Assembly: GCF_016908315.1 (NCBI RefSeq)
Contig: NZ_JAFBDQ010000005.1
Coordinates: 1 to 64,000, forward strand
DNA from: Halanaerobacter jeridensis
Lineage (GTDB): Bacteria > Bacillota > Halanaerobiia > Halobacteroidales > Halobacteroidaceae
DNA: 64,000 nt
Reading direction: 5' to 3'
Part shown: positions 17,030 to 47,434 of the stretch, piece by piece
Numbering within the stretch: the stretch's first letter is position 1
How the letters are laid out: each line of letters opens with the position of its first letter
The notes under the pieces: generated by a model
Database searches by the model: none
Seen by the model: the letters and a program-made list of their open reading frames with translations, nothing else
Told to the model about the DNA's origin: nothing
Made by a program: the position numbers and the translations under genes

Positions 17030-17260
17030 TTAATCAAATTCCGCAAAGTTCTGCGCAAAAACAAAATTTAGTATCGGCTCCCCTTCTTGAAACTCCAACA
17101 TTTCTAATTTTAATTCTTTTCCAGCTAGTTCTTGTCTCGTCTTAATTATTTCTTTTTCTGGGGGAGTATTACTCATTCCTAACAACAAAATAGCTATTAT
17201 TAACATCAATCCTAACAACAATATCTTATTTTTGTTTAACATTTTATTCCCTCCAGTCAT
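17030..17260 (-). CDS. small membrane protein
   Basis: 76 aa with one hydrophobic helix. Overlaps the TetR gene end by 4 nt. Confidence 0.35.
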   Translation of the reverse strand: MTGGNKMLNKNKILLLGLMLIIAILLLGMSNTPPEKEIIKTRQELAGKELKLEMLEFQEGEPILNFVFAQNFAEFD

Positions 17261-17893: not shown

Positions 17894-18034
17894 CCCATAA
17901 TCTATCTCCTTTCATGAAAGTGTAATTAAATAAACTAATAGTTTACTTAATTACATTTTACTCTTTTTTTAATTATTATCAAGAAAAAAAGAACATATCT
18001 AATCTCAGACATGTTCTTAATTACATATTAATTA

Positions 18035-22909: not shown

Positions 22910-22910
22910 C

Positions 22911-24950: not shown

Positions 24951-25163
24951 TAAATTTTCCTCCTCATAATAATATAGCTTTTATTTTTTAAGTTGATCCA
25001 ATTTATTTAAGGTTTAAATTTGCTTTAATTATTAAAACATAATTTTGCATATTTTTATATTTTATCCATTTAACATTAAAAAAATAATTAAATTAAATCA
25101 ACTTATTAACAGATATTCAAACTCTAGTTTTATTAAGAATCACCTTAACTCTTGTCCTAGAAT

Positions 25164-25778
25164 TTAATTAAGCAATTTTTCTTTAACTATATATAAATCC
25201 TTTTCTTCCACTTTAGATACTACCACCGCAGCACTACCTTTTAGGATTGTATCTCCTACAGATTTAACATTAATCACAATCGGATAGCCATCAACCATAA
25301 TTTCTGCCTGCCCTATATTTTCTGCATTAATAGTAGATTTCAACACACAATCTTTTCCCACTATCTCTACACTGCTGCTATCTTCCATGGCGGCAAAAAA
25401 TCCTGTTAACGGCTCAGTTAAAGCCTTGGTAAGCAAAACTGCTATAATTATATTTTGCCCAAAAATTAAAAATCCCCCGAACGATTGGGGAGAAATATTA
25501 GTATAATACACTAACATACTTAAGACCCACAATACAAGAAATAAAATAGTCCCATAAATCATAATTGGTACCGCACCAATATTAAGAAACTTAATTATTT
25601 TAACACCGCCGTCAAAATACAGATTCGAAGAACAATCCAGGTCGAAATCAAGATCAAAATCTATCACATTAACTGAAAAGACTCCTAATATCACTGACAG
25701 CCAATAAAAAATAACTATCATTAACAACATCGACGGCAGTATATTTATCCCACTAAACGCAAATGCAATATACTCCAT
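25164..25778 (-). CDS. NfeD-like membrane protein
   Basis: Multi-TM N-terminus plus C-terminal OB-fold-like VEIVGKDCVLKS...GQAEIMVDGYPIVINVKSVGDTILKGSAAVVV. Sits upstream of the flotillin gene, the classic NfeD-SPFH pairing. Confidence 0.65.
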   Translation of the reverse strand: MEYIAFAFSGINILPSMLLMIVIFYWLSVILGVFSVNVIDFDLDFDLDCSSNLYFDGGVKIIKFLNIGAVPIMIYGTILFLVLWVLSMLVYYTNISPQSFGGFLIFGQNIIIAVLLTKALTEPLTGFFAAMEDSSSVEIVGKDCVLKSTINAENIGQAEIMVDGYPIVINVKSVGDTILKGSAAVVVSKVEEKDLYIVKEKLLN

Positions 25779-29434: not shown

Positions 29435-29566
29435 TAAAAATGTTCGTCTACCCATTTTTATCTTTTTTTAGTTTTTTCTTTTTAAATTTTGAATTTACTC
29501 TTTACTTTTTATTTTTTAATTGTCACTCTTCACTAATTACAACTGGGCACTACCAGTTTCTCATTC

Positions 29567-29741
29567 TTTAAGAATACTTTGCCCAGGAGCAACTATTTTT
29601 ATTTGACCGCCAGTAGAACACATTAATTTAGAACCTTCCAATAAAGCAGACTGTTGACCAACTTTCACGTTTTCTTTCACCTTAGTCCATGGTGAGGGAA
29701 GACTAGGCGTACAAGAGCTTTCAGTAATTTTGCAATGACCT
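29567..29741 (-). pseudogene. C-terminal portion of the DUF4280 (PAAR-like) gene, displaced by the miniature IS element
   Basis: rc translation CKITESSCTPSLPSPWTKVKENVKVGQQSALLEGSKLMCSTGGQIKIVAPGQSILKE* matches my recollection of the DUF4280 C-terminal half. Confidence 0.5.
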
Positions 29742-30100
29742 ACTTGAAGGGCAAGCCCGTTCAGGTTTCTTCATTCATTGAAACGAGCCTAATCTAAACC
29801 TACCGAAATGGTAAGACAAATCAGGTCTTACAGTTTCTAGACCAGCCAAAAGACTGGTTGAGGCAACTTACAATGCCTCCAGAAGCTTGAATTCCCGTCA
29901 GCCCGACGGTATGTATTATATTTTAACCCTTTTCTAATTTTATAGAGCAGCTTGGTTGTCGCTTACTCTTTATCGTAGGGTTTCATTTTTTTGACTTATA
30001 TTTAGTATATCTTATTTTAGAAATAATATTCAATTATTTCTAAAATGTTGTCATTTAACCCAAAGGCAAGCCCATTAGGGTTTTCTGACAACTAATGCAA
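29742..30100 (-). mobile_element. miniature, transposase-less IS200/IS605-family derivative (LE and RE only)
   Basis: 29742-29925 is about 95% identical to the RE/omega-RNA region at 44821-45004. LE hairpin cccaaaggcaagcccattaggg at 30058-30085 is homologous to the LE at 46822-46865. Only about 130 bp of AT-rich DNA lies between them. Confidence 0.6.
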
Positions 30101-30884
30101 TAACATTTGCAATTAAATTACCACAGACTTTAGAATTATGTCCTGATACTACTTGTAATTGACTGGGGGTACTTCCAGCGCTACATTTCAGCCTTGCACC
30201 AGAACAGACATACAACTGACCTCCTCCACTAGAACTTCCTTGACTATTACCGCCGCTATTATTTTTGCTCGTCTGACTATAACTTGCTCTATTATTACTG
30301 TTCCTATTAGTTGCTGCACCTTGTTTTCCTTTCTCTTTCTCACTACTGCTACCAACACTAGCAGCAACTTGACCTTGAGCTTTACTTTGTTCTTTGTTTT
30401 GCTGCTTTTTATTTTCTTCTTTTTCTTCCGGAAAGACTATCTTATCGCCTCGGTAAATCCATAAAAAATTATTTTTTATTCGTTTTTCTTCTTTTAAGTA
30501 TTGATTTTCTTTCACTCCTAGTACTGCACCTTTAGTATCTTCTTCTTCCGCACTTTGCTCAAATATCTTTCCTTGCTCTAAATAATAAGGAGCAGGTTTA
30601 TCTAGCCACAAACCATAATCCCCTTCTTTAAAATCATCAATTAAAGCCCAATTTAATTCATTATTCTGATCTAAATATAACATCACTAAGTTACCATCTT
30701 CTTTACGGTATTTATTATCATATTGATCTTTATAATCTATATCTTCTTCCTCTGTTTCTTTAATCCCCGGGCCAATCAAATTGCCATTAATCTTAATTTT
30801 AGTTTTTCTTTTTTCTAAATCAATATTAATTTCACGCTCATCTTTAGCTAGTTTAGTCTTTTGATATTCATTCTTTCCTGTCAT
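30075..30884 (-). pseudogene. DUF4280/PAAR-like domain protein, interrupted by the miniature IS element
   Basis: C-terminal LYVCSGARLKCSAGSTPSQLQVVSGHNSKVCGNLIAN equals the DUF4280 N-terminal half. Reading frame runs into the element LE and stops. N-terminal region has the EGDYGLWLDKP module shared with the adjacent lipase protein. Confidence 0.55.
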
Positions 30885-30906
30885 TTTACCCCACCCTCAA
30901 ATAATT

Positions 30907-33900
30907 TTAAGCATAACAAATTAGTTTATCCCTTTCTTTACGATTGAATTTAGAATTAGCTCCAGCTATTTCATCAATCCTATTAAGCGGTAATTTAATT
31001 CCATAATCACCGTTCCGAAACTTCTTAATCATTATCTTCCACTGCTGATTCGAACCATATTTAATTACTAAATCATACTTGTCGTCATAACAATTTTGGC
31101 TATACTCACAATATAAAGTGGCCGTTTTATATTTCTTGACTTTAACTTCATAAAAAGTCTTTATTCCATAAGTATTACCATCTGAATTAGCTATTCTTTT
31201 CAGCTTAGGTAACTGCTTAAAATTAAGTTCAGCTAAATTATGCAGTTGTCCAAATAATTTTAGTAGGATCTTGCCGCTGCCGTCTGATTCCATAACGACG
31301 CCGTTAAAACTACTTGTTCCTTCATCTTCTCGTTTGTAAGTTGGAGTTGATTCTCCGTTATAAAATATATATTGGTCTGGTGACTGACCTCGGTTATCTT
31401 GAAACTTGAATTTAGCATGGTTCAGACCGTAGTCTCCATTTTCAAAACCATTAATTAATAAGGCATTGTTATAGTCACCAAAATTAATTACTAAATTGCC
31501 CAGCTCTTTTAGATAAGTAAAAGTGATCTTATCACCATTTAAACAGACATTTTTTTGCGTATCCTTTGCAACTTCAGTCTTACTTAATAAACTAGCTGCA
31601 TCCCTATAGTCCTGCTTTCCAAACTTCAGCAGTATCTTTCCACTGCCGTTACTTTCCTCTTCTACAGTATTATTATGCTGCCAAAAACCGCTGCTGCCTG
31701 CAGTAAATTTATATTCACAGTTACTTCTATCCAGTTGGACTACCAAATTCCGACTGCCGTAGAGGACTGTGGCATAATTAACTACTTCATCTTCAAGATC
31801 GTATCTTCTCCTACTACCGTATAACACATCTTCCGGCACGATAAATTCTAAACCAAAGTCACCATATTGATAGTTATCTATTATGACTTTACCGCCGTAC
31901 TTAGAAAAGTACTGTTTGTTATTGCCAAAACTTGCCCCATAACTATAATTAACTTCTACAGTAGACTCTTCAGGAATATAAGCATAATAAAAGCCGAACT
32001 TATCCGTGAATTCATACTTTAATTTATTCTCTATAAGTTCTACTTCATTTTTAAATTCTAAGTCTTGACCTAATAACTTCTGCTCGCCATTCGGTAGAGC
32101 AATTTTCAATCCATCACCACTAATTTTAGAGTTTTCCTGTTGGCGGTGGGCATAAATCTCATAATACTGCAGTTCTCTGATTCCATCATCAACTATCTCC
32201 GCCTCTAAACTACCTTCTACTCTATGTACACGCGGGAGATAGATGCCATAATCTCCATTCACAAACTCATCTATTCTTGTCCTATTTAACTTTTCTGTCG
32301 TAAATTCAGTCACACCATCTTTAGTTGCGCTTGGCCCGTAATAAGCAATCAGTACGTTTTCTTCTGGTTGACTAAAATTAGGCTGTAAGTGATATTCTAC
32401 TTTAAAATCTTGCTCTGCAAATACTTCTTCATATATTTCAGTGCCATAATACTTATCTTCATCTTCTTTTAGATTATTTAAATACTCCTCTTGAATCTCA
32501 ATTTTCTTTCCTAACTGTACTTCATTAATTATGATATCAGTCTGGGGATCACTGTCTTGATTATAAGTATCTATTTGGCCCATGCCCATCACAAACTCAA
32601 ACGGATCTCTTTGAGACTTACTATTCTCTTCTAGTTTACTGCTGCCAAATAAATTATGCCTATTTGGTGGAGCCGTAATGTTCATTTTTATCTGTTGGGA
32701 AGAATTAGTAATTGGAGTGCTGTGGTAGATTGTTTCTTCCTCCTGCGTTACCCCTGCTGTCCCTAAGAATAACTGCTTGATGTTTCCAGATGATGACCAG
32801 CGCCATAATTTTTTCCTGTCTTGTTCATCTATTTTCTTTAGTTGCGCTAAAATAGCAGTATCTAAGCTATACTCACTATTATTTTCATCAATTACTATTG
32901 TATATTTACATTCATTATAAATAGTTATTAATATTTTTAGCAAAGAAGACTCCTCTATTGTTATCCATTCTTCATTTAAATCCTGGTTAATATTATTTTT
33001 AGTAACTTCATCTAACTTCCGACCTTGCTGTTTAACACTATTAAATAAAGTTGCCTTAGATAATTTAAATAAATTATCTTGAAAAGTTTCTTCAGTCTTC
33101 TTTCTACTAGCTGATTTATATTTTAAATATAACTCTTCTAATTCTTTTAAATCATTACCATCATCAGTTATTTCTAAAATTATATATTTTATTATTGAAC
33201 GCAAATAATCATAACTCAAACTATCTGTTAACTCTCCGATTTCTGCTGTCCCGCCTTTATAATTTTCTGGTTCTCCTATGTTACCTTTCTTTTCTAATAA
33301 TATATAAGGGTAAAATATATTAACACCATGCTGCTTAGCTAATTCTAATTCTTCTCCTCCTATTTCACCTGCCCCATCTTTAAGAGAACCTTCTTCTATT
33401 AAATCCGAATATTTTATTTCGCTATTATCTTTAAATTCTTTATCTACTAAATAGCAGTTACCTACATGCTTAAAAATTGTTCCCGTAATATCATAAGAAT
33501 TAGCATAATTTTGGAGATTTGACTTATCCAATTTTTTATATTTTTCAGCAAAACGTAATTTTCTATTTGCAAGTTCAAATGCTATCTCTTCTAATTCCTC
33601 AGCCTCTTCAATCGGCATAATTAAAGATAAACCAGATTCTTTTATCAAACTATCCTCTATTAATGCTTGTTTATAATCTTTCTGCAGTGCTAATAACTGC
33701 TCAGTAAATTGATCAGTATCACTAATATCTTCAAATTGTTGATAACCCTCACTAAGCAACTCATCTTTTAAGTTGTCAATCTTACCTTGGAGTAAACTTT
33801 TTTTATTTAAATCATTATTCAACTCCATCTGATAAGTAAATTGATTATAATCTCCTGCTTCCATTCTCTCTTCAATTGCTTTGATTTCTTGCTTGAACTT

Positions 33901-35025
33901 TTTTACTTTATCTGCTGCTTCATCAATCATATCTAATCTATGTTTTACTAATTCTCTAATAAATTTAATCCTATCTATTTCCGGAATTCCTGCCTCATTC
34001 TTTTTTACAAATTTAGAATTTATACTAGTTCCTTGAATAATATCTGACTTTTGAATTTCCTGATAGACCCTCTTATCAAGTTCATCTCTTAAGTCTCTTT
34101 CCCCTATTAAAACTTTATTAACTAAAAAGAGCAAAGCATCCTTATAGCCTAAAAACTCATTACCATAGAAATTCTTAAAATGTTTAATTCCAATTCCATT
34201 CCACGTCTTACAATAAACATGATGACCATTCCCTTGAGCCATAACTGCTGCATACTGAGCTAATCCTCCAGCTAAGGAATGTCCAGTGAAAGTGAAAGAG
34301 TAATTCTTATATTCCGAATGATCTTTTAAAATAAGTTTATAAAAATTTTCTGCCTTATCAAATTGCTCACTAGGAATACCAGCAGCAATCAAAGAATTAG
34401 TCATTGTATGATCTCTAGTTTCATTTGTCCCCCGATAAGCAATGATTATTTCTTTATCACCTTCATTTACAAAAGCTGCTGCATAAAATCCATCGCCTGC
34501 ACCTAAATCTCCTTCCAAGAACTTATCTATTTTACTATAAACTAAATCTTCTAATTGATTGACCAACGCCCAATTAGTCAAATTAAAAGAAATTGCCGCT
34601 TTATTTAATTTTGCTAGCACAGGTAACAGAGGTACTTGTTTTATAACTAATGATAATACATCCGGGTCAGTTCCTGCATCGATCATAGGACCTGCTTGAC
34701 CCATTACAAAATTCATAATTACAGATTTTATTTTATAAAATAAATTATTTGGCTCTTCTTTTCTTTCTAAATTATTTTCTCCATCTTTCATTAAAAATTT
34801 CCAATTACTTAATTGATCATAGTTAGTATAATTAACTTCCAATCTATTCTTTCTATATTTGGGATCATCTTTAAATCTATTTTCCGCTGAATTAAAAAAT
34901 ATTTCTTCTATAGTAGAATTTTCATCTCCCCCATCCGCTTTTTTACCATTATAAAAATCTTCATAAACCATATCACTAAAAATCAAACTTAAATAATCAT
35001 TTGCTTTTGGCTTTTTTCCACTCAT
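30907..35025 (-). CDS. giant class-3 lipase (alpha/beta hydrolase) domain protein with C-terminal NGDYG repeat modules; candidate toxin/effector
   Basis: 1372 aa. Lipase_3 nucleophile elbow FTGHSLAGGLAQY preceded by AYRGTNET. Repeated modules NGDYGIYLP, NGDYGIKLP, GDYGLNHAKF and GDFGLEFIV. No signal peptide. Confidence 0.6.
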   Translation of the reverse strand: MSGKKPKANDYLSLIFSDMVYEDFYNGKKADGGDENSTIEEIFFNSAENRFKDDPKYRKNRLEVNYTNYDQLSNWKFLMKDGENNLERKEEPNNLFYKIKSVIMNFVMGQAGPMIDAGTDPDVLSLVIKQVPLLPVLAKLNKAAISFNLTNWALVNQLEDLVYSKIDKFLEGDLGAGDGFYAAAFVNEGDKEIIIAYRGTNETRDHTMTNSLIAAGIPSEQFDKAENFYKLILKDHSEYKNYSFTFTGHSLAGGLAQYAAVMAQGNGHHVYCKTWNGIGIKHFKNFYGNEFLGYKDALLFLVNKVLIGERDLRDELDKRVYQEIQKSDIIQGTSINSKFVKKNEAGIPEIDRIKFIRELVKHRLDMIDEAADKVKKFKQEIKAIEERMEAGDYNQFTYQMELNNDLNKKSLLQGKIDNLKDELLSEGYQQFEDISDTDQFTEQLLALQKDYKQALIEDSLIKESGLSLIMPIEEAEELEEIAFELANRKLRFAEKYKKLDKSNLQNYANSYDITGTIFKHVGNCYLVDKEFKDNSEIKYSDLIEEGSLKDGAGEIGGEELELAKQHGVNIFYPYILLEKKGNIGEPENYKGGTAEIGELTDSLSYDYLRSIIKYIILEITDDGNDLKELEELYLKYKSASRKKTEETFQDNLFKLSKATLFNSVKQQGRKLDEVTKNNINQDLNEEWITIEESSLLKILITIYNECKYTIVIDENNSEYSLDTAILAQLKKIDEQDRKKLWRWSSSGNIKQLFLGTAGVTQEEETIYHSTPITNSSQQIKMNITAPPNRHNLFGSSKLEENSKSQRDPFEFVMGMGQIDTYNQDSDPQTDIIINEVQLGKKIEIQEEYLNNLKEDEDKYYGTEIYEEVFAEQDFKVEYHLQPNFSQPEENVLIAYYGPSATKDGVTEFTTEKLNRTRIDEFVNGDYGIYLPRVHRVEGSLEAEIVDDGIRELQYYEIYAHRQQENSKISGDGLKIALPNGEQKLLGQDLEFKNEVELIENKLKYEFTDKFGFYYAYIPEESTVEVNYSYGASFGNNKQYFSKYGGKVIIDNYQYGDFGLEFIVPEDVLYGSRRRYDLEDEVVNYATVLYGSRNLVVQLDRSNCEYKFTAGSSGFWQHNNTVEEESNGSGKILLKFGKQDYRDAASLLSKTEVAKDTQKNVCLNGDKITFTYLKELGNLVINFGDYNNALLINGFENGDYGLNHAKFKFQDNRGQSPDQYIFYNGESTPTYKREDEGTSSFNGVVMESDGSGKILLKLFGQLHNLAELNFKQLPKLKRIANSDGNTYGIKTFYEVKVKKYKTATLYCEYSQNCYDDKYDLVIKYGSNQQWKIMIKKFRNGDYGIKLPLNRIDEIAGANSKFNRKERDKLICYA

Positions 35026-35178
35026 TGATCTCCTCCTCTGTAATTAAATAATTATTTCTATAACTATTTTTTATCTCTTCTATTTCTTTTTTATATCCCT
35101 CCCAACCAGTTTTTGAAATGCAATCCTCTTGAATATCACTAACAGAATTGATTTTTTTATAATCTTCACTTCTAATTT

Positions 35179-35934
35179 TTAAGTTATATTTTTTTCTGCC
35201 ATGTATATTCTAGCTCTACTATACTTTGCATGACCATCATAACCATCTTTCATTAAATCTATGTCATTACTAAATACATCTGTCGCATTCAGTAACCAAT
35301 TTACATCTATATCTTTAAATAATTCTCCTCTATATATATAAATATATATGCCTGACCTCTTTAAATCTTGTCCTTCTAGCTTTTCTTTGAGTCGTAAAAC
35401 ACTTCTTAAAAAATTTTCTTTATCTTTTTTTATTACATTTTTAAATATGTGAATATGCGGCAATATATAAGTGTTTTCGTGATCTTCTTCAAATAATTCT
35501 TTTTGGGAAGGAATATGGTCCCAATTTGAATAAGTACCCCCATTAACATAAAAAACTTTTTTTTCATAAGGAAAAAGGTCTTCAATCATATTTTCGTAAT
35601 ATTGATTAATATTGTGCCCTACTCGTCTTCTCCCATATCTATCCCAAACTGAATTACCGTATTTATGACCGCCTGTCCGAGCTTCAAATACAAATTCTTT
35701 ATCATCCACTGGATTACAATAAGCTACATAAACATTTGTCTCACTTATGTATCTCATCTTTTTCATCTCAAATTTTTCATGATAACCACTTTCTAAGTTT
35801 TCTTTTATCCGTTGATATATCTCAGGATAATCTCGCTTAGGATTTCTGGTGACACTTGGTTGAAAACTACAGCCCATAATGCTAATCATTAACAATAATA
35901 AAATCAACATTTTCTTTATTCCATTTACTTTCAC
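35179..35934 (-). CDS. hypothetical lipoprotein
   Basis: Lipobox signal MKKMLILLLLMISIMGC at the N-terminus. Confidence 0.5.
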   Translation of the reverse strand: MKVNGIKKMLILLLLMISIMGCSFQPSVTRNPKRDYPEIYQRIKENLESGYHEKFEMKKMRYISETNVYVAYCNPVDDKEFVFEARTGGHKYGNSVWDRYGRRRVGHNINQYYENMIEDLFPYEKKVFYVNGGTYSNWDHIPSQKELFEEDHENTYILPHIHIFKNVIKKDKENFLRSVLRLKEKLEGQDLKRSGIYIYIYRGELFKDIDVNWLLNATDVFSNDIDLMKDGYDGHAKYSRARIYMAEKNIT

Positions 35935-36146
35935 TTTATCACCTCATTACTCCAATTTTTTATCTCCCTTCAATTAACAGCAGACTCTCATTTATTAACG
36001 GATTCCTAAAATTACTGTGAACATGTTTCGCAGTGAATCTAAATTTGCTACCCAAAGAATAGTTCATTAAATTTATTTTACCATTTTATTCTAATCTTTT
36101 CAACTATAGTAAGTCATATATTGAGAGAACTTATGTGAAATAAAAA

Positions 36147-36404
36147 TTATAATTTAATTTTTGTTCCCAACATCTCTAAAAACTTAGCTAACCATTCCGG
36201 ATGAGCCGGCCACGCAGGAGCAGTAACTAAATTATCATCTACATGAGCAGCATCAACATCTTTATCTACCCAACTTCCTTTAGAATTAACAACTTCTGTT
36301 TTTACCGCAGGATAGGCAGTACACTCTTTATTTTCTAATACATTAGCAGCAGCTAATACTTGAATCCCATGACAAATAGCAGCTATCGGTTTATTAGTTT
36401 TCAT
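36147..36404 (-). pseudogene. DJ-1/PfpI-family C-terminal fragment
   Basis: PIAAICHGIQVLAAANVL... matches only the C-terminal half of DJ-1/PfpI proteins. It starts right after a terminator with no RBS. Confidence 0.5.
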
Positions 36405-36480
36405 AATATGTATTTAAATACCATTCTTTGCATTCCTGCAAAGCTCAATTCTTTATTATTACCTAAATCCTTTGCTTTAT

Positions 36481-36522
36481 ACAAAATAAAAATCTCCCGA
36501 GAATAATCTAGGAGATTTTTTA
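36481..36522. terminator. bidirectional Rho-independent terminator
   Basis: atctcccgagaataatctaggagat flanked by A/T runs. Confidence 0.65.
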
Positions 36523-36549
36523 AACTTACTATTTACTTTTTATCTTTTG

Positions 36550-37293
36550 CTATTTCTTTAAACCAGCAATCCCTGCTAACATATTTTGATAATGCGACCC
36601 CTTCCAATATACTTTATTACACTGCTGACATAAATAAAACTCCTGATAATACTGCTTTGTTTTGGGTTCTAATTTATCAATTATTTTTTCTTTCTCTACT
36701 GCTTTTAGAAGCGTATTACATTCAGTACACCGGCCTCGCTGACCAACTTTGCCAAATAAATCATAGCGGCTTAAGACTGAATGCAGCTGCCGGCGCGGAT
36801 CATCTTCACGGACAAAGTAGCCGTAATTTACTCTACTTCTTTTCAATAGTCCATGGTCCCTAGTTAATAAAATCCTATCTTCTTCATCAGAAATTTGAGC
36901 CAATTCTGGATCATCATAATCATTGCGATACCAGCTATCAAAACCAAGCATTCTCATATAACGGGCCAATTTACCTAAATGAGCATCTAATACAAATTGA
37001 TACGGTGGCTCATATAGAGGGCGGAGCCTAATATCAGAAATAAGAGCAAAAGTTCTAAAAGCCGGATAAACACTAATCGAATCTTCAGCTTGGACATGAT
37101 AAGAAAAATCAACCGGTTCTCCATTACTCAAAATCAAACTCACCTCAGGGTGTGGTACACCAATACTCTCAATTCTATCTTTCACTGACTGGATACCTTT
37201 AAATTGATGATGATGCCAAGTTCCGGACTGTCCAGGTGGGAAGAAATCATTCAATTCAGCATAAAATCTAAAATAAGCCGTTTTCATCTTCAA
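36550..37293 (-). CDS. Mut7-C/PIN-like RNase-domain protein with C-terminal zinc ribbon
   Basis: 247 aa. C-terminal CTECN...CQQCNKVYWKGSH zinc ribbon. Overall resembles the DUF82/Mut7-C family. Confidence 0.45.
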   Translation of the reverse strand: MKMKTAYFRFYAELNDFFPPGQSGTWHHHQFKGIQSVKDRIESIGVPHPEVSLILSNGEPVDFSYHVQAEDSISVYPAFRTFALISDIRLRPLYEPPYQFVLDAHLGKLARYMRMLGFDSWYRNDYDDPELAQISDEEDRILLTRDHGLLKRSRVNYGYFVREDDPRRQLHSVLSRYDLFGKVGQRGRCTECNTLLKAVEKEKIIDKLEPKTKQYYQEFYLCQQCNKVYWKGSHYQNMLAGIAGLKK

Positions 37294-37423
37294 TACGCCC
37301 TCCTTAATACAATTTACATATTTTCTCTGTATTATTATAACTTCTAGCTAATAATTAATTCTTCCTCTTGCAAATAAAAAACTTCTGGAGTTCAACCCCC
37401 AGAAGTAACTCTGCTTATCTTGA

Positions 37424-39019
37424 TTAAATTTTAAAGTAAGCAACTTCTTCTTGTAATTCTTGCGACATGGTTGCTAATTCTTGTGCTGATTCAGAAACTT
37501 CTTCTGACATAGTATCGATATCTTCAGCAGCATTCATCACTTCATCAGTATCTTTAACTAATGTCTGAGAAGCATGAGCAGTTTCTTCAATTTGAGCAGA
37601 AGTTTCTCCACTAGCATTTTTTATCTCAGCAAAAACTTCTCCTGTATTTTCAGCAATAGTTTGTCCTGTTTGGGCTTTTTCTTCTACTTCTCTAATAGCC
37701 TTAAGGCCAACTTTAGTTTTACTCTGTGTCTTATCAATTAGATTAGCAATCTTATCCGTAGCTTGAGAAGTTTCTTGAGCTAATTCTCTAATTTCATCCG
37801 CTACTACAGCAAATCCCTGTCCGTGTTCTCCGGCTCGAGCAGCTTCAATAGCAGCATTTAAAGCTAATAAATTAGTTTGCTCAGCAATACTATTAATTAA
37901 ATTAATTATATTCTCAATCTCTTCAGAATTATTATCTAAATCATCAATAGCATTTACTGCTTTAGAAACTAACTGATTAATATTATTTACATTAGTAATT
38001 GTGTCTTGAATATTTTTATCTCCTGTTTCTGTTTGGGCATTAGCTTCTTGAGCAAAACCAGCTACTTCTTCTGTACTAGCTGAAATCTGTTGAATACTAG
38101 AAGCCATCTTTTCAATTAAGTGTTTCGTAGTATCAATTGAAGCATTCCCCTCTTCTGCCGCAGCTGATAATTGCTGGCTATAAGCTGATAAATCTTCTGT
38201 CTTATCTAATAAATTAGTAATAATCTTTTTTAACTTATCCTGCATTTGAGTTAAAGCAGTTACTAAATCACTAACTTCATCATTAGATTTAACTTCTATC
38301 GCCTCTATAGTTAAATTACCCGATGCTATTTCATCAGCAAAATTAACAGCTTTATTTATAGGGCCAGAAATTCTTTTATTAATCAATAATGCAATTCCTA
38401 ATCCAATTATAATTGCTATAATAGTACTAATTAATATCACCTTTTGAGCTAAATTAACTTTCGTTTTTGCTATATTAAGGTTTCTTTCTTGCTCAGTAGT
38501 TAAATAATTTTGATATTGATTAAAATTGCTTTGTACTTTCTTTAAACTTTCATGCGTTTGATTATTATAAATTTCTAAGGCTAATTGATAGCCTTGCCCA
38601 TTTTGTATCCCTTGATTTTCTTTAATCTCAATAATTTTTTTAGCTGACTGATGAAGTTCTTTATGAGGCTGTTCAATATCTTTTAAAGTTTTCTGTATTT
38701 CAGACGGCATTTTCTTAAATTCTTCTGTATCCAATAATTGATAATATGTTTTCCCGAAAGCACATTGAGTATGGTCTAATTCTCCCGAAAAATCTTCTTG
38801 ATGTAAAATTACATCTGCTAAAGAATTCACCCATTCTAAATGATCAATCTCTCTTTCTAAAACATTTATTTTTTCAGCAGTTGAATTTTCCGCTTTTGAA
38901 TTAAAATTTTCAATTTCACCTATAAAATAAAAAGAAACTCCTCCCATAATTACCATCAATAACAAAACAATACCAAAACCACCTAAAATCTTTTGTTTAA
39001 TAGTTAATCTCATTATCAA
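37424..39019 (-). CDS. methyl-accepting chemotaxis protein
   Basis: N-terminal TM, sensor, second TM/HAMP, and MA domain ([16 protein letters not shown]...[32 protein letters not shown]). Confidence 0.85.
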
Positions 39020-39233
39020 CCCTCCAACACTTCCAATTTATTTAATAATTTTATTGGCCTTAACAAAAATAATAATCATTATCATAATTATATCATAAAT
39101 TACATAAAATTTCAGCAATTATTTTTTAAATTTAAGTTAAATTATAATAATTAACAGGAATTTTTGTTATCTATAACGAAATTAAGATAATGAACTCTTA
39201 AACCAAATCATTTATGGAGGTGGCAATTTTGAA

Positions 39234-40907
39234 GAAAAAACACTTTTATTGTCCTTAGTCCTTTGTTTATTAGTATCTTTTTCTGTGACTGCAGCAGCAG
39301 ACGACTTACAGCTGAAAATTTTCCACACAAATGATACTCATGCCCGAGTGGAAGCAGGCAAATATGCTGGTATGGGATTTGCCAAAATTTCTAGTCTAGT
39401 CAAAGAAGCTCGCAATGAATCCGATAATGTTTTCGTTATTGATGCGGGAGATGCTTTTCACGGTCAAATCATTGCTAATCTAGTCGAAGGAAAAAGTATT
39501 GCTCAAATTTATAATGCTATTGGCTATGATGTGATGACACCTGGTAATCATGATTTCAACTATGGTGTTAAACGATTAAAAGAATTAAATGAAATGACTG
39601 ATTTTCCAGTTATCGCTGCTAATATTACTAACAAAGATGACACTCAAGACTATCCCTTCCCTCCAGGAGAAATTAAAACAATTGATGGAGTTAAAATTGC
39701 CTTTATTGGTTTAGCTACTCCAGAAACTGCTTATAAAACTCATCCAAAAAATGTACAAGGTATTACTTTCCAAGATCCAATTCAATCAGCTCAAAAGATG
39801 GTAGATAGACTACAAAAACAAGAAAATCCCGATATTATTATTGCTGTCAGCCATTTAGGTTTAAGTGAAGGTAGTAAATATACTAGTGCTGATGTAGCTA
39901 AAAAAGTAGATGCCATTGATTTAATTGTTGATGGTCACAGCCATCATGAATTAAAAGAAGGACGAGTCATCAATGATACCCCAATTGTTATGGCAGGAGA
40001 ACATACTAAGAACTTAGGTGTTGTTAACTTAACTATTGAGAATAAAAAATTAGTTAATAGCGAAGCCAATCTAATTACTAAAAAAGAAGCTGCAGATGTT
40101 AAGCCTGATCCAGAAATTACAAAGCTAGTCCAAGAAATCAAACAAGAACAGGACAAAATCACTTCTGAAGTGATTGGTAAAACTGCCGTAGAACTAAATG
40201 GAGCCCGGGCAAATATTCGGACTGGTGAAACTAACTTAGGTAATTTAGTTGCCGATGCAATGTTAAGTGCAGCTGATGCTGACGTGGCACTTACTAACAG
40301 TGGAGGTATTAGAGATTCTATTGCTCAAGGTGAAATAACTAAAGGTGATATCATCCGCGTCTTACCACTTGGTAACTATGTAGTTGTTAAGAAAATGAAA
40401 GGTAAAACTCTAATGGAAGCAGTTGAACACGGTTTAACACAATATCCAGCTCACGAAGGATTATTCCCACAAGTTGGCAATATGTCTATTATCTTTAACC
40501 GTTCTAAGCCAGCGGGAGATAGAGGGATGTTTCTTCACGTAAATGGAGAGTTTGTTAAACCTAATAAATACTACCGCGTAGCTACCAATGACTTTATGGC
40601 TGCTGGTGGGGATGGATATGATATGCTTAAAGACACAGAAACAGTGCAAGAAGCAGACGGTTTAGCAGAAATAGTAATTGATTATATTAAAGACAAAGGT
40701 ACTATAGCCCCTACTCAAAATGGAAGAATTCTATCTGTAGCTAAAGATAATAACCACTATATTTACAAAGTTGAAGCAGGAGATACATTATCAGAAATTT
40801 CTAACTGGTTTGGTGTTGAAATGTCTAAGATCATTAAATTAAATAATATTGAAAATCCAAATTTAGTTTATCCAGATACTAAAATAAAATTACCTCCAGC
40901 ACAATAA
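39234..40907 (+). CDS. secreted bifunctional metallophosphatase/5'-nucleotidase with C-terminal LysM domain; 5' end frameshifted in an A-run
   Basis: Calcineurin-like NDTH...GNHDF motifs, 5'-nucleotidase C-terminal domain, LysM YKVEAGDTLSEISNWFGV. RBS ggaggtg plus TTG at 39234 would give the signal peptide MKKKTLLLSLVLCLLVSFSVTAAA if the A6 run (39238-39243) were A7. Confidence 0.75.
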   Translation, partial: EKTLLLSLVLCLLVSFSVTAAADDLQLKIFHTNDTHARVEAGKYAGMGFAKISSLVKEARNESDNVFVIDAGDAFHGQIIANLVEGKSIAQIYNAIGYDVMTPGNHDFNYGVKRLKELNEMTDFPVIAANITNKDDTQDYPFPPGEIKTIDGVKIAFIGLATPETAYKTHPKNVQGITFQDPIQSAQKMVDRLQKQENPDIIIAVSHLGLSEGSKYTSADVAKKVDAIDLIVDGHSHHELKEGRVINDTPIVMAGEHTKNLGVVNLTIENKKLVNSEANLITKKEAADVKPDPEITKLVQEIKQEQDKITSEVIGKTAVELNGARANIRTGETNLGNLVADAMLSAADADVALTNSGGIRDSIAQGEITKGDIIRVLPLGNYVVVKKMKGKTLMEAVEHGLTQYPAHEGLFPQVGNMSIIFNRSKPAGDRGMFLHVNGEFVKPNKYYRVATNDFMAAGGDGYDMLKDTETVQEADGLAEIVIDYIKDKGTIAPTQNGRILSVAKDNNHYIYKVEAGDTLSEISNWFGVEMSKIIKLNNIENPNLVYPDTKIKLPPAQ

Positions 40908-40918
40908 ATACTAATCTC

Positions 40919-40950
40919 GGGATAAGTCTTTACGGCTTATCCCTTTTTTT
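40919..40950. terminator. bidirectional Rho-independent terminator
   Basis: gggataagtctttacggcttatccc followed by T7. Confidence 0.75.
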
Positions 40951-41989
40951 AACAAAGACGCGGTAATAATTGCTTTTGCAATGGCCTTAAAATTCTCGTC
41001 CCTCCTAAATTAGTTGTCAAGCAGACTCTTGATTTATCTCCTGTAACTTCTCCAATTACTGCAGTGCCTGTTCCTATAGGGCTATCTTTCATAGCATTAA
41101 CTACTGCTTCCGCTTCTTCTGCAGCAGCAACACATAACACCCGCCCTTCACTTGCTAAATAAAGTGGATCGATTCCTAAGATTCCTCCTAAGCCTTGGAC
41201 CTCTTTTTTTATCGGTAGTATTTCTTCTTCTAAATTAATCGTAACCTGCTTTTGCTGAGCTATTTCATGTAGTGCAGTAGCTAATCCACCTCGTGTTGGA
41301 TCAGTTAAAAATTTAATTCCACCACTAGAGCTTAAAATTTGAGCAGTTAAATTATTTAATAAAGCACAGTCACTCGTTAATGCACTACTCACTTCAAATT
41401 CTTCTCGGCTAGCTAAAATAGCTGCTCCATGATCACCTATAGAACCACTAATTATTATTTTATCCCCTGTTTCTATTTTAGCATCTTGTAAATTGATATC
41501 CGGGCCAACTACTCCTAATCCAGTAGTATTAATATAAATCCCTCCTCCTTTACCCTGCGGCACTACCTTAGTATCTCCTGCTGCTATCTTAACCCCTGCC
41601 TTCCGTGCAGTTTCAGCTACTGACTTAATAATACGTTTTAATTTATCTATCTCCAACCCTTCTTCCAAAATCAATCCCAAAGTTAAATATAACGGGTGCG
41701 CTCCATTCACAGCCAAATCATTAACAGTACCGCAGACAGCTAATTTACCAATATCCCCCCCAGGAAAAAAGATGGGATCAACGACAAAAGAATCTGTAGT
41801 AGTTACTAATTCCCCTTCTACTTCAGGCAAATAAGCAGCATCATCCTGCTGCAATAAGATATCATTACCGCAATAATAATAAATAATATCTTTAATTAAC
41901 TCCTGCATTAACTCCCCACCATTACCGTGGGCCAAAGTTATCGTTTTCACTTTGCTCACTCCTTTCCTAAATTCTATATAAATCTTCAC
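40949..41989 (-). CDS. hypE: hydrogenase maturation factor HypE
   Basis: AIR-synthase-related fold. N-terminal TITLAHGNGGE. C-terminal RILRPLQKQLLPRLC-type tail. Confidence 0.8.
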   Translation of the reverse strand: MKIYIEFRKGVSKVKTITLAHGNGGELMQELIKDIIYYYCGNDILLQQDDAAYLPEVEGELVTTTDSFVVDPIFFPGGDIGKLAVCGTVNDLAVNGAHPLYLTLGLILEEGLEIDKLKRIIKSVAETARKAGVKIAAGDTKVVPQGKGGGIYINTTGLGVVGPDINLQDAKIETGDKIIISGSIGDHGAAILASREEFEVSSALTSDCALLNNLTAQILSSSGGIKFLTDPTRGGLATALHEIAQQKQVTINLEEEILPIKKEVQGLGGILGIDPLYLASEGRVLCVAAAEEAEAVVNAMKDSPIGTGTAVIGEVTGDKSRVCLTTNLGGTRILRPLQKQLLPRLC

Positions 41990-42185
41990 TTTTTAGTGAA
42001 GATTTATAGTAATTAGTAACAAGTAAAGAGTGATGAGTAGAAAATCAAAAACAAAGTCAAAACCAAGTTCAAAAACTATAATCTTAGTGGTTGTGTCTTT
42101 TTTAAGATTTTGATTTTATGGTTTTGACTCATTACTGATTACTCTTTACTATAAAGTTTCATTTTCACTGAAACTTTATATAGGT
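41985..42185. repeat. hairpin-bounded AT-rich repeat element in the hypD-hypE intergenic region
   Basis: Hairpins tcttcacttttt agtgaaga (about 41985-42008) and aaagtttcattttcactgaaacttt (about 42155-42183) flank a sequence sharing CTCATTACT/TTGACTTT/CTCTTTACT motifs with 25960-26400. Confidence 0.5.
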
Positions 42186-43263: not shown

Positions 43264-43493
43264 CTTTCTTCCCCCGCATCTTGGGCCAAATCTCTAAAAG
43301 CAGCTAAAGTTTCCTGGGCTGCAGATTGATTTAACTTTTGAATCGCACATCCCGAATGAAGCAGCACATAGTCTCCTACCTCTACTTCCGAAATCAAAGT
43401 AATATTGACTGTCTTTCTAACTCCTTTTACTGCTCCTACAGCCTCTGTATCATTAACAATTTCTATAACTTTAACCGGCACAGCAATACACAT
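43260..43493 (-). CDS. hypC: hydrogenase maturation factor HypC
   Basis: 77 aa starting with MC (MCIAVPVKV...), the HypC/HupF hallmark. Confidence 0.8.
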   Translation of the reverse strand: MCIAVPVKVIEIVNDTEAVGAVKGVRKTVNITLISEVEVGDYVLLHSGCAIQKLNQSAAQETLAAFRDLAQDAGEER

Positions 43494-44233: not shown

Positions 44234-44818
44234 CAGTTCCTAAACCTACTCCATCAAAAGCAATTCCAATCACCGGTTGTTGGAGTTGATGTTCAACCAT
44301 AGAACTGACTAAATGGGCATGATGATGCTGCACTGCTATCTTCTCACCTGGTAATTGCTGAGCATAATGAGTAGAATAATAACCCTCATGTAAATCATGA
44401 ACAATTAACTCCGGTTCTATATCATACAACTGCTCTAAATGTTCAATATTATCTTGATAACGTTGGTAAGTCTCTAAGTTACTTAGACTGCCTGTGTACT
44501 GACTTACAAAAGCAAATTCTCCTTTGCTGAGACAGAATGTATTCTTTAAATCTCCTCCACAGGCCAAAGTAGCTACCTCTGAGCTTACTTTAATCACTTG
44601 TGGTGCAAAACCACGGCCGTGTCTAATTACTCGTTCATGACCAAGGGCTACATTGGTTACTGCATCATCTACCGGCACCTCTATCTTGCGATTATGTAAT
44701 AAACAGTAGTCAGCTACTGCAGTTAATTCTTCTCCTGCTCTTTGATTAGTATATTCTAACGGTAGTCCACTTAAATTTCCACTTGTCGCTACTAATACAT
44801 CAAGTCCATGGGCCAATG
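44199..44818 (-). pseudogene. hypF: hypF fragment (YrdC-end/Kae1-like middle portion)
   Basis: ...LAHGLDVLVATSGNLSGLPLEY... The annotated N-terminus MKKPERACPSGRS is read-through from the IS right end, not hypF. Confidence 0.7.
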
Positions 44819-44820
44819 AC

Positions 44821-45050
44821 CTACCTGAAGGGCAAGCCCGTTCAGGTTTCTTCATTCATTGAAACGAGCCTAATCTGAACCTACCGTAAATGGCAAGACA
44901 AATCAGGTCTTACAGTTTCTAGACCAGCCAAAAGACTGGTTGAGGCAACTTACAACGCCTCCAGAAGCTTGATTTCCCGTCAGCCCGACGGTAAATATGT
45001 TTTTTATGAGCTTCACGAAAAGTCCGTTAGGACTTGTAGGATGTGGACTA
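44821..45050 (-). ncRNA. putative TnpB-associated omega-RNA / right-end element
   Basis: Highly conserved approximately 185-bp structured sequence immediately 3' of tnpB. It is duplicated (about 95% identity) in the tnp-less copy at 29742-29925. Confidence 0.45.
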
Positions 45051-46181
45051 ACCTGCTAACAGTTTCTTTCCTTCTTGGAGGATATTCAAACTTGCGTTAA
45101 GGTCACGATCATGTTCAGCACCACATTCACAGGTCCAGTTTCTTACAGATAGATCTTTAACATTTGGATTTTTAGTTCCACATTCGTTGCAAGTTTGAGA
45201 ACTTGCGAAAAATCTATCTACCTTTTGAATGATACAATTATACCAGTCACCTTTATATTCTAGCATATCTGTAAATTTGCCCCAAGATACATCTGTTATA
45301 TGTTTGCCAAGTTTGCTGTTTTTGACCATACCTTCAATGTTTAAGTTTTCAAGACAGATAAATTGATTTTCTTTAACTAGTCTTGTACTTAATTTATGGA
45401 GGAAATCAGTTCGTACATTTTTGATCTTTTCATGTACTTTAGCAATCTTATGTTTGAGCTTTTGCCAGTTATTAGAACCTTCTTTTTTACGAGCTAATTG
45501 TTTTTGTAATCTGGCTAGTTTATTTTCATATTTAGAAAGATGTTTAGGATTTTCTATCTTTTCGCCCTCTGATGTAATAGCAAAATCTTTGAGACCTAGA
45601 TCAATTCCTATCTGACCATCATTGGAATAATTAACTTCTACAACTTTAATTTTTTCAACATTGATAGAGATATAATACTTTCCTGTTCTTGATTTAGAGA
45701 CTGTAACATTATTTAATTTACCTCCAATATTTTCTTCACTATAATTAGAAAATTTGATCCAAGAAACTTTAGGAAGTTTGATTTTATTTCCTTTGATTTC
45801 TATACTTTCAGTTCCGCTAGATCGTTTAAAATATTCGGTACGATATGATAGTCGAGAACCTTTCTTGCTTTTGAAATTAGGGAATCCTTTATCACCGTTA
45901 AAGAAATCTTGGAAAGCTTTATCTAGATCTCTAATTGATTGCTGCAAAGCTATAGAATCAGCATTTTTAAGCCATGAAGTTTCTTCCTGATTTTTAAGTT
46001 TAGGAAGATCTTTAATATATTGAGTTTTATTTGCATAGCCATTTTGTTTAGCTTTGTCTAAAAAATAATTATATACCCATCGGCTAGACCCTATAGTTTG
46101 GTTGATTATATCTTTTTGCTTTTGATTTGGATATATCCGACATTTATATCCCCGTTCGATAGGAACAAATCGCTTAATCAT
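45048..46181 (-). CDS. tnpB: IS605-family TnpB (RuvC-like nuclease with zinc finger)
   Basis: 377 aa. C-terminal CNECGTKNPNVKDLSVRNWTCECGAEHDRDLNASLNI zinc-ribbon. RuvC-like motifs. Confidence 0.9.
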   Translation of the reverse strand: MIKRFVPIERGYKCRIYPNQKQKDIINQTIGSSRWVYNYFLDKAKQNGYANKTQYIKDLPKLKNQEETSWLKNADSIALQQSIRDLDKAFQDFFNGDKGFPNFKSKKGSRLSYRTEYFKRSSGTESIEIKGNKIKLPKVSWIKFSNYSEENIGGKLNNVTVSKSRTGKYYISINVEKIKVVEVNYSNDGQIGIDLGLKDFAITSEGEKIENPKHLSKYENKLARLQKQLARKKEGSNNWQKLKHKIAKVHEKIKNVRTDFLHKLSTRLVKENQFICLENLNIEGMVKNSKLGKHITDVSWGKFTDMLEYKGDWYNCIIQKVDRFFASSQTCNECGTKNPNVKDLSVRNWTCECGAEHDRDLNASLNILQEGKKLLAG

Positions 46182-46197
46182 AATTTGACCTCATTCC

Positions 46198-46602
46198 CTA
46201 TTTAAGGTTTTGATTTTTTATATAATTTCTAATAGTTTCAATATTAGCATTACCTACTGTATCTACAAAATATCCTTTGCTCCACAAAGAACCACAACGA
46301 TCATAAAAAATCTTTAATTTAGGATGTTCCTTGAAAAGTTTAATTGCTGATATGCTTTTAATAGTTCTTACTATATCAGTAGGAGCAACTGTGGGTCTAG
46401 CAGATACAAAAATATGAATGTGATCTGGCATTACTTCTAACTCTAATATTTTATAGTTATATCTGTTACAAATATTAATGATAATATCTTTTAAAGATAA
46501 AGCTATATCGCCATTTAAAACTTCAAATCTGAATTTAGGACACCAAACTAAATGATATTTGATGGAATATTTACAATGGTTAGTAGAATTATATTCATTC
46601 AT
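46198..46602 (-). CDS. tnpA: IS200-family TnpA (Y1 HuH transposase)
   Basis: 134 aa. HuH motif MPDHIHIFVSA. Catalytic Tyr region SKGYFV. Confidence 0.85.
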   Translation of the reverse strand: MNEYNSTNHCKYSIKYHLVWCPKFRFEVLNGDIALSLKDIIINICNRYNYKILELEVMPDHIHIFVSARPTVAPTDIVRTIKSISAIKLFKEHPKLKIFYDRCGSLWSKGYFVDTVGNANIETIRNYIKNQNLK

Positions 46603-46801
46603 TTAAATCATACTTTTCTTTGATACTTCTACGCATTAAATCTAAATAGCTTAGTGTAGTCTCTTCTTCAACTGAATAAATACTAGCTAAATTTTCTAAT
46701 TCCCGATCAAAAGGAATTGCAATATTAATTTTAGTATTATCTTTACTTGAAGACATTTTATTTGCTCCTTTAACACATATTATCCCACAATAGATTATAT
46801 A

Positions 46802-47434
46802 TTATGTGAATAGTTGTGTTCTTGACCCAAGGGCAAGCCCGTTGGGTTTTTTACACAAAAACAATAACTGTGGCCCACAATCAGGGCAGGCATTTGGCTG
46901 AGCATGAAAGCGCCTGCTAGTCGGATCTTGATATTCACTAAGGCAATCTTCACACATACTAAAATCAGACATAGTAGTTGACTCCCTGTCATATGGTATA
47001 CTCTCAATAATTGAAAAGCGTGGGCCGCAGTTCGTGCAATTAATAAACGGATATCTATATCTTCTATCATCTCCATCTAATAATTCCTCTTGGCATTGTG
47101 AACATAAAGCTGCATCTGGAGTCACAAAGGTTAACTGTTCATTATCATCTGTACTATCTTTGATTTTAAAATGTTGATAATTCGTAGATTGCAGCTGGTT
47201 GATTATTATCTCTTCTATTTGGGCCAAGGTTGGCGGATTAGATTTAATTTGATTAATCAAATTAGTTACTCCCCGCAGCGAGCCCTGCACATCAATTTCT
47301 ACCCCCTGCTGAGTATTATTAACTTCTCCTTGTACATCATAATGCTGAGCTAAATTATAAACAAAGGGTCTAAAGCCAACTCCTTGTACTATGCCCTTTA
47401 CTATCACAAACTTACGAATTACTTGCTCATTCAT
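46802..47434 (-). pseudogene. hypF: hypF N-terminal fragment (acylphosphatase plus two zinc fingers)
   Basis: KFVIVKGIVQGVGFRPFVYNLA (acylphosphatase), CSQC...CTNCGP and CEDC...CPDCGP zinc fingers. Runs into the IS left end. About 130 aa of the YrdC-like domain is missing between this and the next fragment. Confidence 0.75.

Follow-up and report, generated by a model that had tools for sequence, protein, structure and literature searches.

Organization of the locus

The DNA analysed here (the window) comprises the first 64,000 nucleotides of contig NZ_JAFBDQ010000005.1 of Halanaerobacter jeridensis (assembly GCF_016908315.1). Its minus strand carries three co-oriented open reading frames (ORFs) of 251, 1372 and 269 aa, which an earlier note, made from the letters of the DNA, had read as a lipoprotein gene, a gene for a giant lipase with NGDYG repeats and a downstream gene with a PAAR-like DUF4280 domain, together forming a candidate polymorphic toxin locus. 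The trio was confirmed as real minus-strand ORFs. The locus is probably a cassette of a small polymorphic toxin family, nearly confined to the halophilic Halanaerobiales, in which a large effector is coupled to a phage-tail-like spike tip. The copy in the window is a partly decayed and largely decaying relic, in which the effector gene alone is intact.

Annotation covered the window at ~12.7-47.7 kb and 55-58 kb, with about half of its ORFs. The 1372-aa protein, in the following called the giant, was 100% identical to an H. jeridensis protein named 'DUF2974 domain-containing protein' at NCBI, where the 269-aa ORF is annotated as hypothetical. By sequence, neither the giant nor the DUF4280 protein has a signal peptide. 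A Logan contig of run SRR18704483 reproduced window positions 42054..30075 with zero mismatches and broke off inside a 365-nt element that interrupts the DUF4280 gene. The coordinates are collected in Table 1.

Table 1. Positions of the cassette genes, their parts and the inserted elements in the window.
Feature	Position	Strand	Detail or basis
Intact 1372-aa effector gene (giant)	30907..35025	-	lipase-like N-terminal region, domain to ~aa 770, four GDYG modules
Lipase-like catalytic region, aa 170-600	33226..34518	-	YRGT197-200, GHS250LAGG, D512, H566; helical insertion between Ser and Asp
GDYG module 1, aa 882-937	32215..32382	-	
GDYG module 2, aa 1013-1068	31822..31989	-	most divergent copy, YGDFG
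GDYG module 3, aa 1155-1210	31396..31563	-	
GDYG module 4, aa 1297-1352	30970..31137	-	
Lipoprotein gene, 251-aa ORF as now read	35179..35934	-	lipobox LLLMISIMGC; candidate immunity protein for the lipase
Conserved lipoprotein C-terminal tail, now out of frame	34997..35209	-	DNA alignment with locus L002
269-aa ORF (DUF4280 gene 5' part and start of insert)	30884..30075	-	ORF list
DUF4280 gene 5' part	30098..30884	-	N-terminal GDYG module (30582-30749), low-complexity linker, first ~37 DUF4280 residues
365-nt non-autonomous IS200/IS605 derivative (MITE/PATE-like)	29733..30097	-	left-end hairpin, ~180-nt right end, no ORF
DUF4280 gene 3' part, out of frame with 5' part	29561..29732	-	…KITESSCTPSLPSPW…GGQIKIVAPGQSILKE*; family HMM positions 70-129, 89.7 bits; orthologue DNA alignment
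Autonomous IS200/IS605 element inside hypF	44814..46861	-	tnpA 46602..46198, tnpB 46181..45048; Pfam

IS, insertion sequence; MITE, miniature inverted-repeat transposable element; PATE, palindrome-associated transposable element; HMM, hidden Markov model.

The lipase-like region of the giant

The reading of the N-terminal region as a lipase stood in part. The GHSLAGG motif was found at aa 248-254 with invariant candidates for Ser, Asp and His, but beyond these motifs the domain was represented by borderline profile scores only. The giant reached 22.8 bits with the Pfam family Lipase_3 (cut-off 22), a match that spanned 36 of 140 positions and comprised only the nucleophile elbow, and 16.7 bits with Mbeg1-like, under the cut-off of 21.1. 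A precomputed match to PF26363 (Phospholipase-like) is on record. No Pfam family besides Lipase_3 and Mbeg1-like was detected at E<=0.1, and there was no NCBIfam match. A profile search of the PDB returned the elbow of Thermomyces lipase 1dt3 (FTGHSLGG) as the sole match with an E of ~1.

Among 5.8 billion proteins only three other homologues of the giant were found, P0002 with 76% identity, P0003 with 37% in the N-terminal region, and P0004 from Orenia marismortui with 27%. In the alignment of P0001-P0004 (A5; 27-76% identity) YRGT197-200, GHS250LAGG, D512 (SYDITG) and H566 (QHG) were all invariant, and conservation reached ~aa 770 with the phage and Orenia homologues included. The YRGT strand precedes the nucleophile elbow, as in class-3 lipases, where GxSxG follows (Y/F)RGT. 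Judged by this conservation a predicted Ser250-Asp512-His566 triad is present. The lipase region had no match in 50,697 phage genomes.

A rare module shared by giants, DUF4280 and VgrG-like proteins

Four motifs of the form [NY]GD[YF]G were located in the C-terminal 450 aa of the giant, with the G-D-[YF]-G cores at aa 924, 1055, 1197 and 1339. Thus the repeats reported by the earlier note exist, but their spacing is 131-142 aa instead of ~100 aa. Its claim that the downstream gene shares the module was borne out. The downstream ORF carries KEGDYGLWLDKP and aligned to repeat 3 of the giant with 43% identity over 51 aa (E 2e-6), and an HMM of the N-terminal module of the downstream family, in which F-x-E-G-D-Y-G-L-W is invariant, gave four matches along the giant (E 1.4e-6 for the whole protein).

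The module of ~50 aa is present in neither Pfam nor PHROGs. A 55-position profile yielded just 44 matches at E<=1e-3 among 1.84 billion representative proteins; 41 of the module proteins were scanned for domains, and DUF4280 was present in 14, Phage_GPD in 6 and LysM in 4. Three RTX-repeat proteins were among the matches, probably weak ones. Three architectures recurred: small proteins of 280-355 aa that combine the module with DUF4280; giants with 2-4 C-terminal modules, seven of which end in a fused DUF4280 domain; and VgrG-like proteins of ~1100-1200 aa with a single module near residue 600-660. Two module-bearing proteins are named 'contractile injection system protein, VgrG/Pvc8 family' by NCBI. 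Named source taxa were Iocasia fonsfrigidae, Halocella sp., Selenihalanaerobacter shriftii, Halanaerobiales assemblies and one Fusobacteriota assembly. The data support a genuine module that is rare and goes together with DUF4280 and VgrG-like proteins.

Related cassettes in other genomes

A genome scan with the 13-member family of the DUF4280 protein gave 11 loci, ten with a full gene and one with a partial gene at a contig end. All belonged to Halanaerobiales (Halanaerobacter, Halobacteroidaceae, Frackibacter, Halanaerobiaceae) or to unclassified Bacillota assemblies, and several genomes had more than one DUF4280 cassette. In most loci a module-carrying protein was encoded upstream of the DUF4280 gene. 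Giant and DUF4280 were even joined in a single stop-free reading frame in loci L013 and L019, which may partly be the same proteins as the seven fusions of the protein library.

The upstream giants varied. Lipase-type giants occurred in the window, L002 and L008, Ntox44 giants in L012 and L014, and a giant with LysM and a C-terminal domain of no known family in L010; elsewhere no known domain was recognized. A constant module plus DUF4280 thus stands behind alternative toxin domains, and the description of the locus as a polymorphic-toxin-like cassette was supported: the family is built around the PAAR-like DUF4280 protein, sister cassettes carry Ntox44 or other domains, and the lipoprotein co-varies with the lipase. 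Because L002 and L008 have the cassette in other genomic contexts than the window, the data suggest that the cassette is mobile. In L008, a metagenomic relative, the orthologous lipase giant (L008:4564-9845) is split into 392 and 765 aa by another tnpB of the IS605 type, which encodes 439 aa on the opposite strand; the DUF4280 gene is intact and the giant broken there, the mirror image of the window.

The gene of the homologue P0003 belongs to a contractile-tail phage locus, where its neighbours encode sheath, tube, tape-measure and Baseplate_J proteins. P0003 has a precomputed match to PF18352, which we take to be the Gp138 spike N-terminal domain; it lacks the GDYG module. Because of its place in a phage baseplate block and the PF18352 match, the lipase type may sit on a contractile-tail spike.

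Two VgrG-like genes come after the gene of the Orenia homologue P0004, in a conserved cluster that ends in DnaJ, FHA and PP2C genes. The Orenia VgrG-like proteins gave weak matches to Phage_GPD and TIGR01646; apart from weak vgr_GE matches of the Orenia proteins, PHROGs and NCBIfam were uninformative on the cassette proteins. In Orenia metallireducens (L022:213-22931) and O. marismortui (L007) the conserved cluster consists of repeated pairs of small unknown genes, a giant of ~980 aa, a module-bearing VgrG-like protein (1104 aa), a second VgrG-like protein (475 aa) and unknowns of 428, 229, 881 and 256 aa. Its DnaJ, FHA and PP2C-phosphatase end recalls the post-translational regulators of type VI secretion systems (T6SS), and no recognizable sheath, tube or baseplate gene was seen in it. 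Neither a VgrG gene nor a contractile injection locus was found in the annotated part of the window or within 10 kb of 10 related loci; the link to the spike is an indirect one, made by the module in the VgrG-like proteins.

The lipoprotein co-varies with the lipase

The lipoprotein of the window had neither a Pfam nor a PHROG match. The genes immediately preceding those of the two nearest lipase giants encode proteins 86% and 71% identical to it; for two tandem lipoproteins encoded ahead of the Orenia lipase homologue the identity was 30-32%. Lipobox-bearing homologues stood directly upstream of every lipase-type giant across Halanaerobacter and Orenia. Non-lipase giants had a different, RHS-repeat-like upstream protein, the L010 copy of which carries a lipobox. 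Co-variation with the lipase is the pattern expected of an immunity gene, and the lipoprotein is therefore a candidate for that role.

The gene appears damaged in the window. The lipoproteins of the relatives have 307-314 aa and their genes overlap the start of the giant gene, while the window ORF has lost the conserved tail of ~60 aa. DNA alignment with L002 revealed that 1 nt is missing at or close to an A7 run (35189-35195), and the shifted frame reads KIRSEDYKKINS...EEINEWKKAKSK, like the tail of the 307-314-aa orthologues. The A7 run on the minus strand may mark a true frameshift, but also a slippery site or an error of sequencing. In the Logan contig of SRR18704483, which possibly stems from the same data, the A7 sequence is the same.

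The DUF4280 gene of the window is a pseudogene

According to the earlier note the 269-aa ORF ends with a DUF4280 domain. This had to be given up: the ORF matched PF14107 with 15.6 bits (cut-off 26.3) at profile positions 1-37 of 109 and so does not hold the whole domain, and the remainder lies in another frame. This 3' part, …SSCTPSLPSPW…GGQIKIVAPGQSILKE*, follows ~340 nt beyond the 5' part. Intact orthologues on the other hand scored 96-107 bits across positions 1-109; the profile assignment therefore holds for the family, but not for the pseudogene in the window. When the fragments were joined after removal of the transposon-derived insert, the match fell into two stretches that scored 65.2 bits and left out profile positions ~38-60. 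Six cysteines (C227, C234, C254, C276, C283 and C314) are invariant in the 13-member family alignment (A4). In the window all that remains of the codon of the FG-x-C cysteine is TG, supplied by the transposon end, followed by the C of the flank.

The intact orthologue P0007 from L008, which is 78% identical, reads …GNLIANIMDYQAMTNVQSFGYCKI… and has GGTTATTG exactly where the window gene has its insertion. Alignment with the P0007 gene showed that the window gene is devoid of 40 nt, which encode IMDYQAMTNVQxF in the orthologue. Precise excision of the element would yield …ANVIAKLLKALVRLVFPHHGLR* with a frameshift; because 40 nt of coding sequence are gone, excision could not restore the gene. 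Since the family varies as LIAN[IV]MD, the loss is most simply attributed to slippage between GTTAT(GG) and GTTAT(TG) repeats 40 nt apart. A deletion on the right-end side of the element, possibly caused by TnpB, was considered as well; it is disfavoured by the invariant M-D of the family at the first site and the perfect GTTATTG at the second. The DUF4280 gene of the window is a pseudogene by virtue of a transposon-derived insertion and the 40-nt deletion. A paralogous DUF4280 protein, P0013, is encoded elsewhere in the H. jeridensis genome, and the cassette of the window is probably inactive unless P0013 substitutes.

The insert was identified by comparison within the window. By BLAST its right end (29911..29733) was 96.7% identical over 180 nt to 44993..44814, just downstream of the tnpB of an autonomous IS200/IS605 element in hypF, and its left end was 80% identical over 50 nt to the same element (46868..46822). 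GTTATTG, which here forms the last 7 nt of the DUF4280 5' part (30104-30098), precedes all three left ends found in the window, and GGTCATTG closes both right ends. Because both ends match the tnpA/tnpB element and the left ends have the GTTATTG motif in common, the insert is a non-autonomous IS200/IS605 derivative. Its flanks, GTTATTG| and |CAAAA, show no target duplication, and terminal inverted repeats are missing. Hairpins around GGGCTTGCC are present at both ends, and the right-end hairpin is weakened by a G-to-A change. A reading as ~316 nt of intervening sequence between imperfect direct repeats with similar 22-nt boundaries was discarded; the apparent direct repeat arises because the two ends, like those of IS605-type elements, fold into similar hairpins. 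The element had no Rfam family match and no match in a plasmid collection.

If the interrupting sequence were a self-splicing intron or another removable element, a full PAAR-like protein could still be made. Indeed, joining the flanks at one chosen point with ~316 nt removed restored a full-length Pfam match of 72.4 bits, and the interrupting region is strongly structured (z = -5.3). Yet no Rfam family, group I and II introns included, was detected at E<=1, and the identity of the right end to the IS605 copy in hypF extends over the supposed exon sequence too. In addition, the 'restored' residues come from the transposon ends and differ from IMDYQAMTNVQTFGY of the orthologues, and the 40 nt of the DUF4280 gene would still be absent. 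We therefore give this explanation almost no weight.

Elements and gene decay in the neighbourhood

The autonomous element in hypF encodes a transposase of the Y1_Tnp family (138.5 bits), and its TnpB matches OrfB_IS605, Cas12f1-like_TNB and HTH_OrfB_IS605. It is the likely transposase source for the small element, which its TnpA could move. TnpB of IS200/IS605 elements is reported to use guide RNAs borne by their right ends (Karvelis 2021; Meers 2023), and the right end of the small element could yield such a guide reading into CAAAATTACTG… / CAAAATTACTGAAAGC. The small element resembles PATEs and MITEs of the IS200/IS605 type in its subterminal hairpins, in the absence of inverted terminal repeats and target duplication, in its insertion 3' of a fixed motif and in a right end near-identical to that of a tnpA-tnpB copy of the same genome. 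It differs only in the right-end G-to-A change and the accompanying 40-nt host deletion. A third, solitary left end (56423-56511, plus strand), 77.5% identical to the copy in the DUF4280 gene and preceded by TTTTGGTTATTG, sits between paralogous LysM-domain genes (55180-56376 and 56553-57755), and no matching right end was found nearby.

The hypF gene is left in minus-strand fragments at 46802-47434, 44199-44855 and 43493-44233. Its N-terminal fragment ends past the second HypF zinc finger. The next does not begin until position 110 of the 178 in the YrdC profile, and at least 110 codons beside the right end of the transposon are therefore missing; the C-terminal remainder is itself split into two overlapping ORFs. 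Like the insertion into the DUF4280 gene, that into hypF coincides with loss of adjacent host DNA, and the IS200/IS605 family is actively eroding genes here.

The adjacent hydrogenase-maturation region (47427-48922, minus strand) looks generally decayed: hypB is split into a 107-aa ORF with the P-loop and an 85-aa C-terminal ORF, and the C-terminal motif DPCISCATH of the NiFe large subunit is carried by one ORF of 139 aa only. Directly adjoining the cassette, a truncated gene, an 85-aa ORF (36147-36404, minus strand), matches the C-terminal half of DJ-1/PfpI only (91-164 of the 165 profile positions). A fluoride riboswitch (RF01734, 48.7 bits; 53702-53770, minus strand) lies upstream of a 395-aa ORF at 52229-53416. 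At 12761-25778 on the minus strand a tyrosine recombinase gene (12761-13801) and, further on, a gene for a 1624-aa DUF3686/DUF7902/AAA ATPase (18035-22909) with two unannotatable partners of 679 and 204 aa may form an island of the mobile or defence type.

Proposed mode of action and its alternatives

DUF4280 is a PAAR-like family (PMC5014421, PMC5349215). We propose that the giant combines a toxin domain, a putative lipase- or phospholipase-like alpha/beta-hydrolase with a Ser250-Asp512-His566 triad, with GDYG beta-modules of ~50 aa, of which effectors would carry one to four. The same module heads the small protein with the predicted C-terminal DUF4280 PAAR-like cone and, in other genera, is embedded in VgrG-like (Phage_GPD) proteins. 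It may thus be the constant, spike-associated part that attaches an effector to the tip (PAAR-like) or to the spike (VgrG-like); in fused proteins the tie would be covalent, in split ones it would be a contact between modules. The complex would be propelled into neighbouring diderm cells by a contractile or phage-tail-like device encoded elsewhere, where the lipase would attack the membrane lipids of the target, while the upstream lipoprotein would shield the producer in its own periplasm.

Several findings weigh against this proposal. As the earlier note had stated, no secretion machinery was visible: the annotated part of the window held no gene of a contractile system or T6SS. No sheath, tube, baseplate or ATPase gene was present within 10 kb of any related cassette either, the locus in the complete Iocasia genome included, and an Orenia 1143-aa query retrieved no VgrG-like protein from H. 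jeridensis (8000 word-sharing candidates scored). With the toxin domain at the N-terminus and the PAAR-like domain at the C-terminus, the order is opposite to that of classical PAAR toxins. By profile the giant is a borderline lipase, as judged from the 22.8 bits and the PDB match given above, and AlphaFold gave no usable model of the hydrolase fold, the PAAR cone or the module. The model of giant aa 151-800 (4 sequences) had a predicted local distance difference test score (pLDDT) of 39.1; that of P0007 (13 sequences) reached a mean pLDDT of 42.6 with the DUF4280 part below 50. By sequence or profile the DUF4280 family had no relative with a solved structure in the PDB. Finally, because two of its three genes are damaged, the window copy may do nothing.

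The same gaps could be read as a cassette without spike delivery. The giant would then be a secreted or surface lipase whose GDYG repeats bind envelope or substrate, the DUF4280 protein a small accessory that binds metal, or an anchor, and the lipoprotein would act as chaperone or partner instead of conferring immunity. The want of contractile-system genes near any cassette fits, as do the LysM domains on some module-bearing giants and the RTX or adhesin-like proteins among the weakest module matches. We nevertheless regard this as unlikely: giant and DUF4280 protein have no signal peptides, co-occurrence of the module is specific for DUF4280 and Phage_GPD, the slot of the lipase is taken by Ntox44 toxins in sister cassettes, and a homologue of the lipase lies in a phage baseplate block. 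That block, where P0003 has the same lipase region inside the structural module of a contractile-tail phage, could in turn suggest a relic of a prophage or tailocin tail tip made up of spike, tip and envelope-penetrating lipase, with no role as toxin and immunity protein between bacteria; DUF4280 and Phage_GPD are phage-derived folds (PMC5349215). Yet phage genes are missing beside the cassettes, the search of phage genomes gave no match, and P0003 itself is without the GDYG module. Multiple cassettes per genome, swapped toxin domains and co-varying lipoproteins are the signature of polymorphic toxins instead, and a tail-tip relic seems the more improbable of these two explanations.

Thus we favor the view that the locus belongs to a polymorphic toxin family coupled to a spike tip. 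A further-reaching version is that the GDYG module marks the cargo-loading parts, i.e. spike, tip and effectors, of an undescribed phage-tail-like toxin delivery system of diderm Firmicutes, whose firing machinery is unrecognizably divergent or non-contractile. We consider this conceivable, if rather doubtful. If true, it would answer what DUF4280 and Phage_GPD proteins do in Firmicutes without genes for T6SS or extracellular contractile injection systems (eCIS).

Comparison with known systems and significance

Tle1-4 type VI lipase effectors are reportedly paired with periplasmic Tli lipoproteins (Russell et al. 2013). The cassette shares with such pairs a GxSxG hydrolase without signal peptide, an adjoining co-varying lipoprotein and genetic linkage of the PAAR/VgrG type. 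In contrast to them, the giant belongs to no Tle family but is a class-3/DUF2974-like hydrolase with a helical insertion of ~220 aa, the annotated part of the window had no T6SS gene, and the gene for the candidate immunity protein precedes that of the giant. Likewise, polymorphic toxin systems (Zhang et al. 2012, PMC3482391) have a constant trafficking part, swapped toxins, a co-varying small neighbour and several cassettes per genome; here, however, the constant part is a C-terminal module array with a PAAR-like domain, and the toxin can be N-terminal.

With PAAR-like DUF4280 proteins such as IglG of Francisella (class PAAR_H in a PAAR survey of 2021) the orthologues share a full-length PF14107 match, conserved cysteines (four bind metal in IglG/DUF4280; PMC5349215) and an N-terminal extension, which serves IglF binding in IglG (PMC5349215). 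Unlike in IglG, the extension is the GDYG module in common with the cargo, several relatives have a whole effector fused N-terminally to DUF4280, no T6SS is nearby, and the DUF4280 copy of the window is a pseudogene. In Firmicutes, DUF4280 (PAAR_H2) genes are known to adjoin Phage_GPD genes without T6SS or eCIS genes (PMC8651086). The cassettes resemble these orphan neighbourhoods in that neither DUF4280 nor VgrG-like genes have T6SS or eCIS genes beside them, but the two are linked by a common module and not by adjacency, the hosts are diderm, and large variable effectors and lipoproteins belong to the unit. That Halanaerobiales are diderm Firmicutes is background knowledge supported by PMC4793230, where a TXSScan analysis of the order reported type I (T1SS) and type Vb (T5bSS) secretion systems and not T6SS.

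Taken together, the cassette family is distinguished by an undescribed module, a C-terminal PAAR-like domain, restriction to diderm Firmicutes and the missing machine, and it is a lineage-specific variant of PAAR/VgrG-linked polymorphic toxins. The lesson from the H. jeridensis copy is the more modest one, as half of this cassette is dead. For the PAAR-like DUF4280 and VgrG-like genes of Firmicutes no machine is known, and the family offers a concrete handle on them: a rare, readily recognizable module links effectors, tip and spike, the toxins can be exchanged, the lipoproteins provide candidates for immunity proteins, and at least two named module-bearing species have complete genomes.

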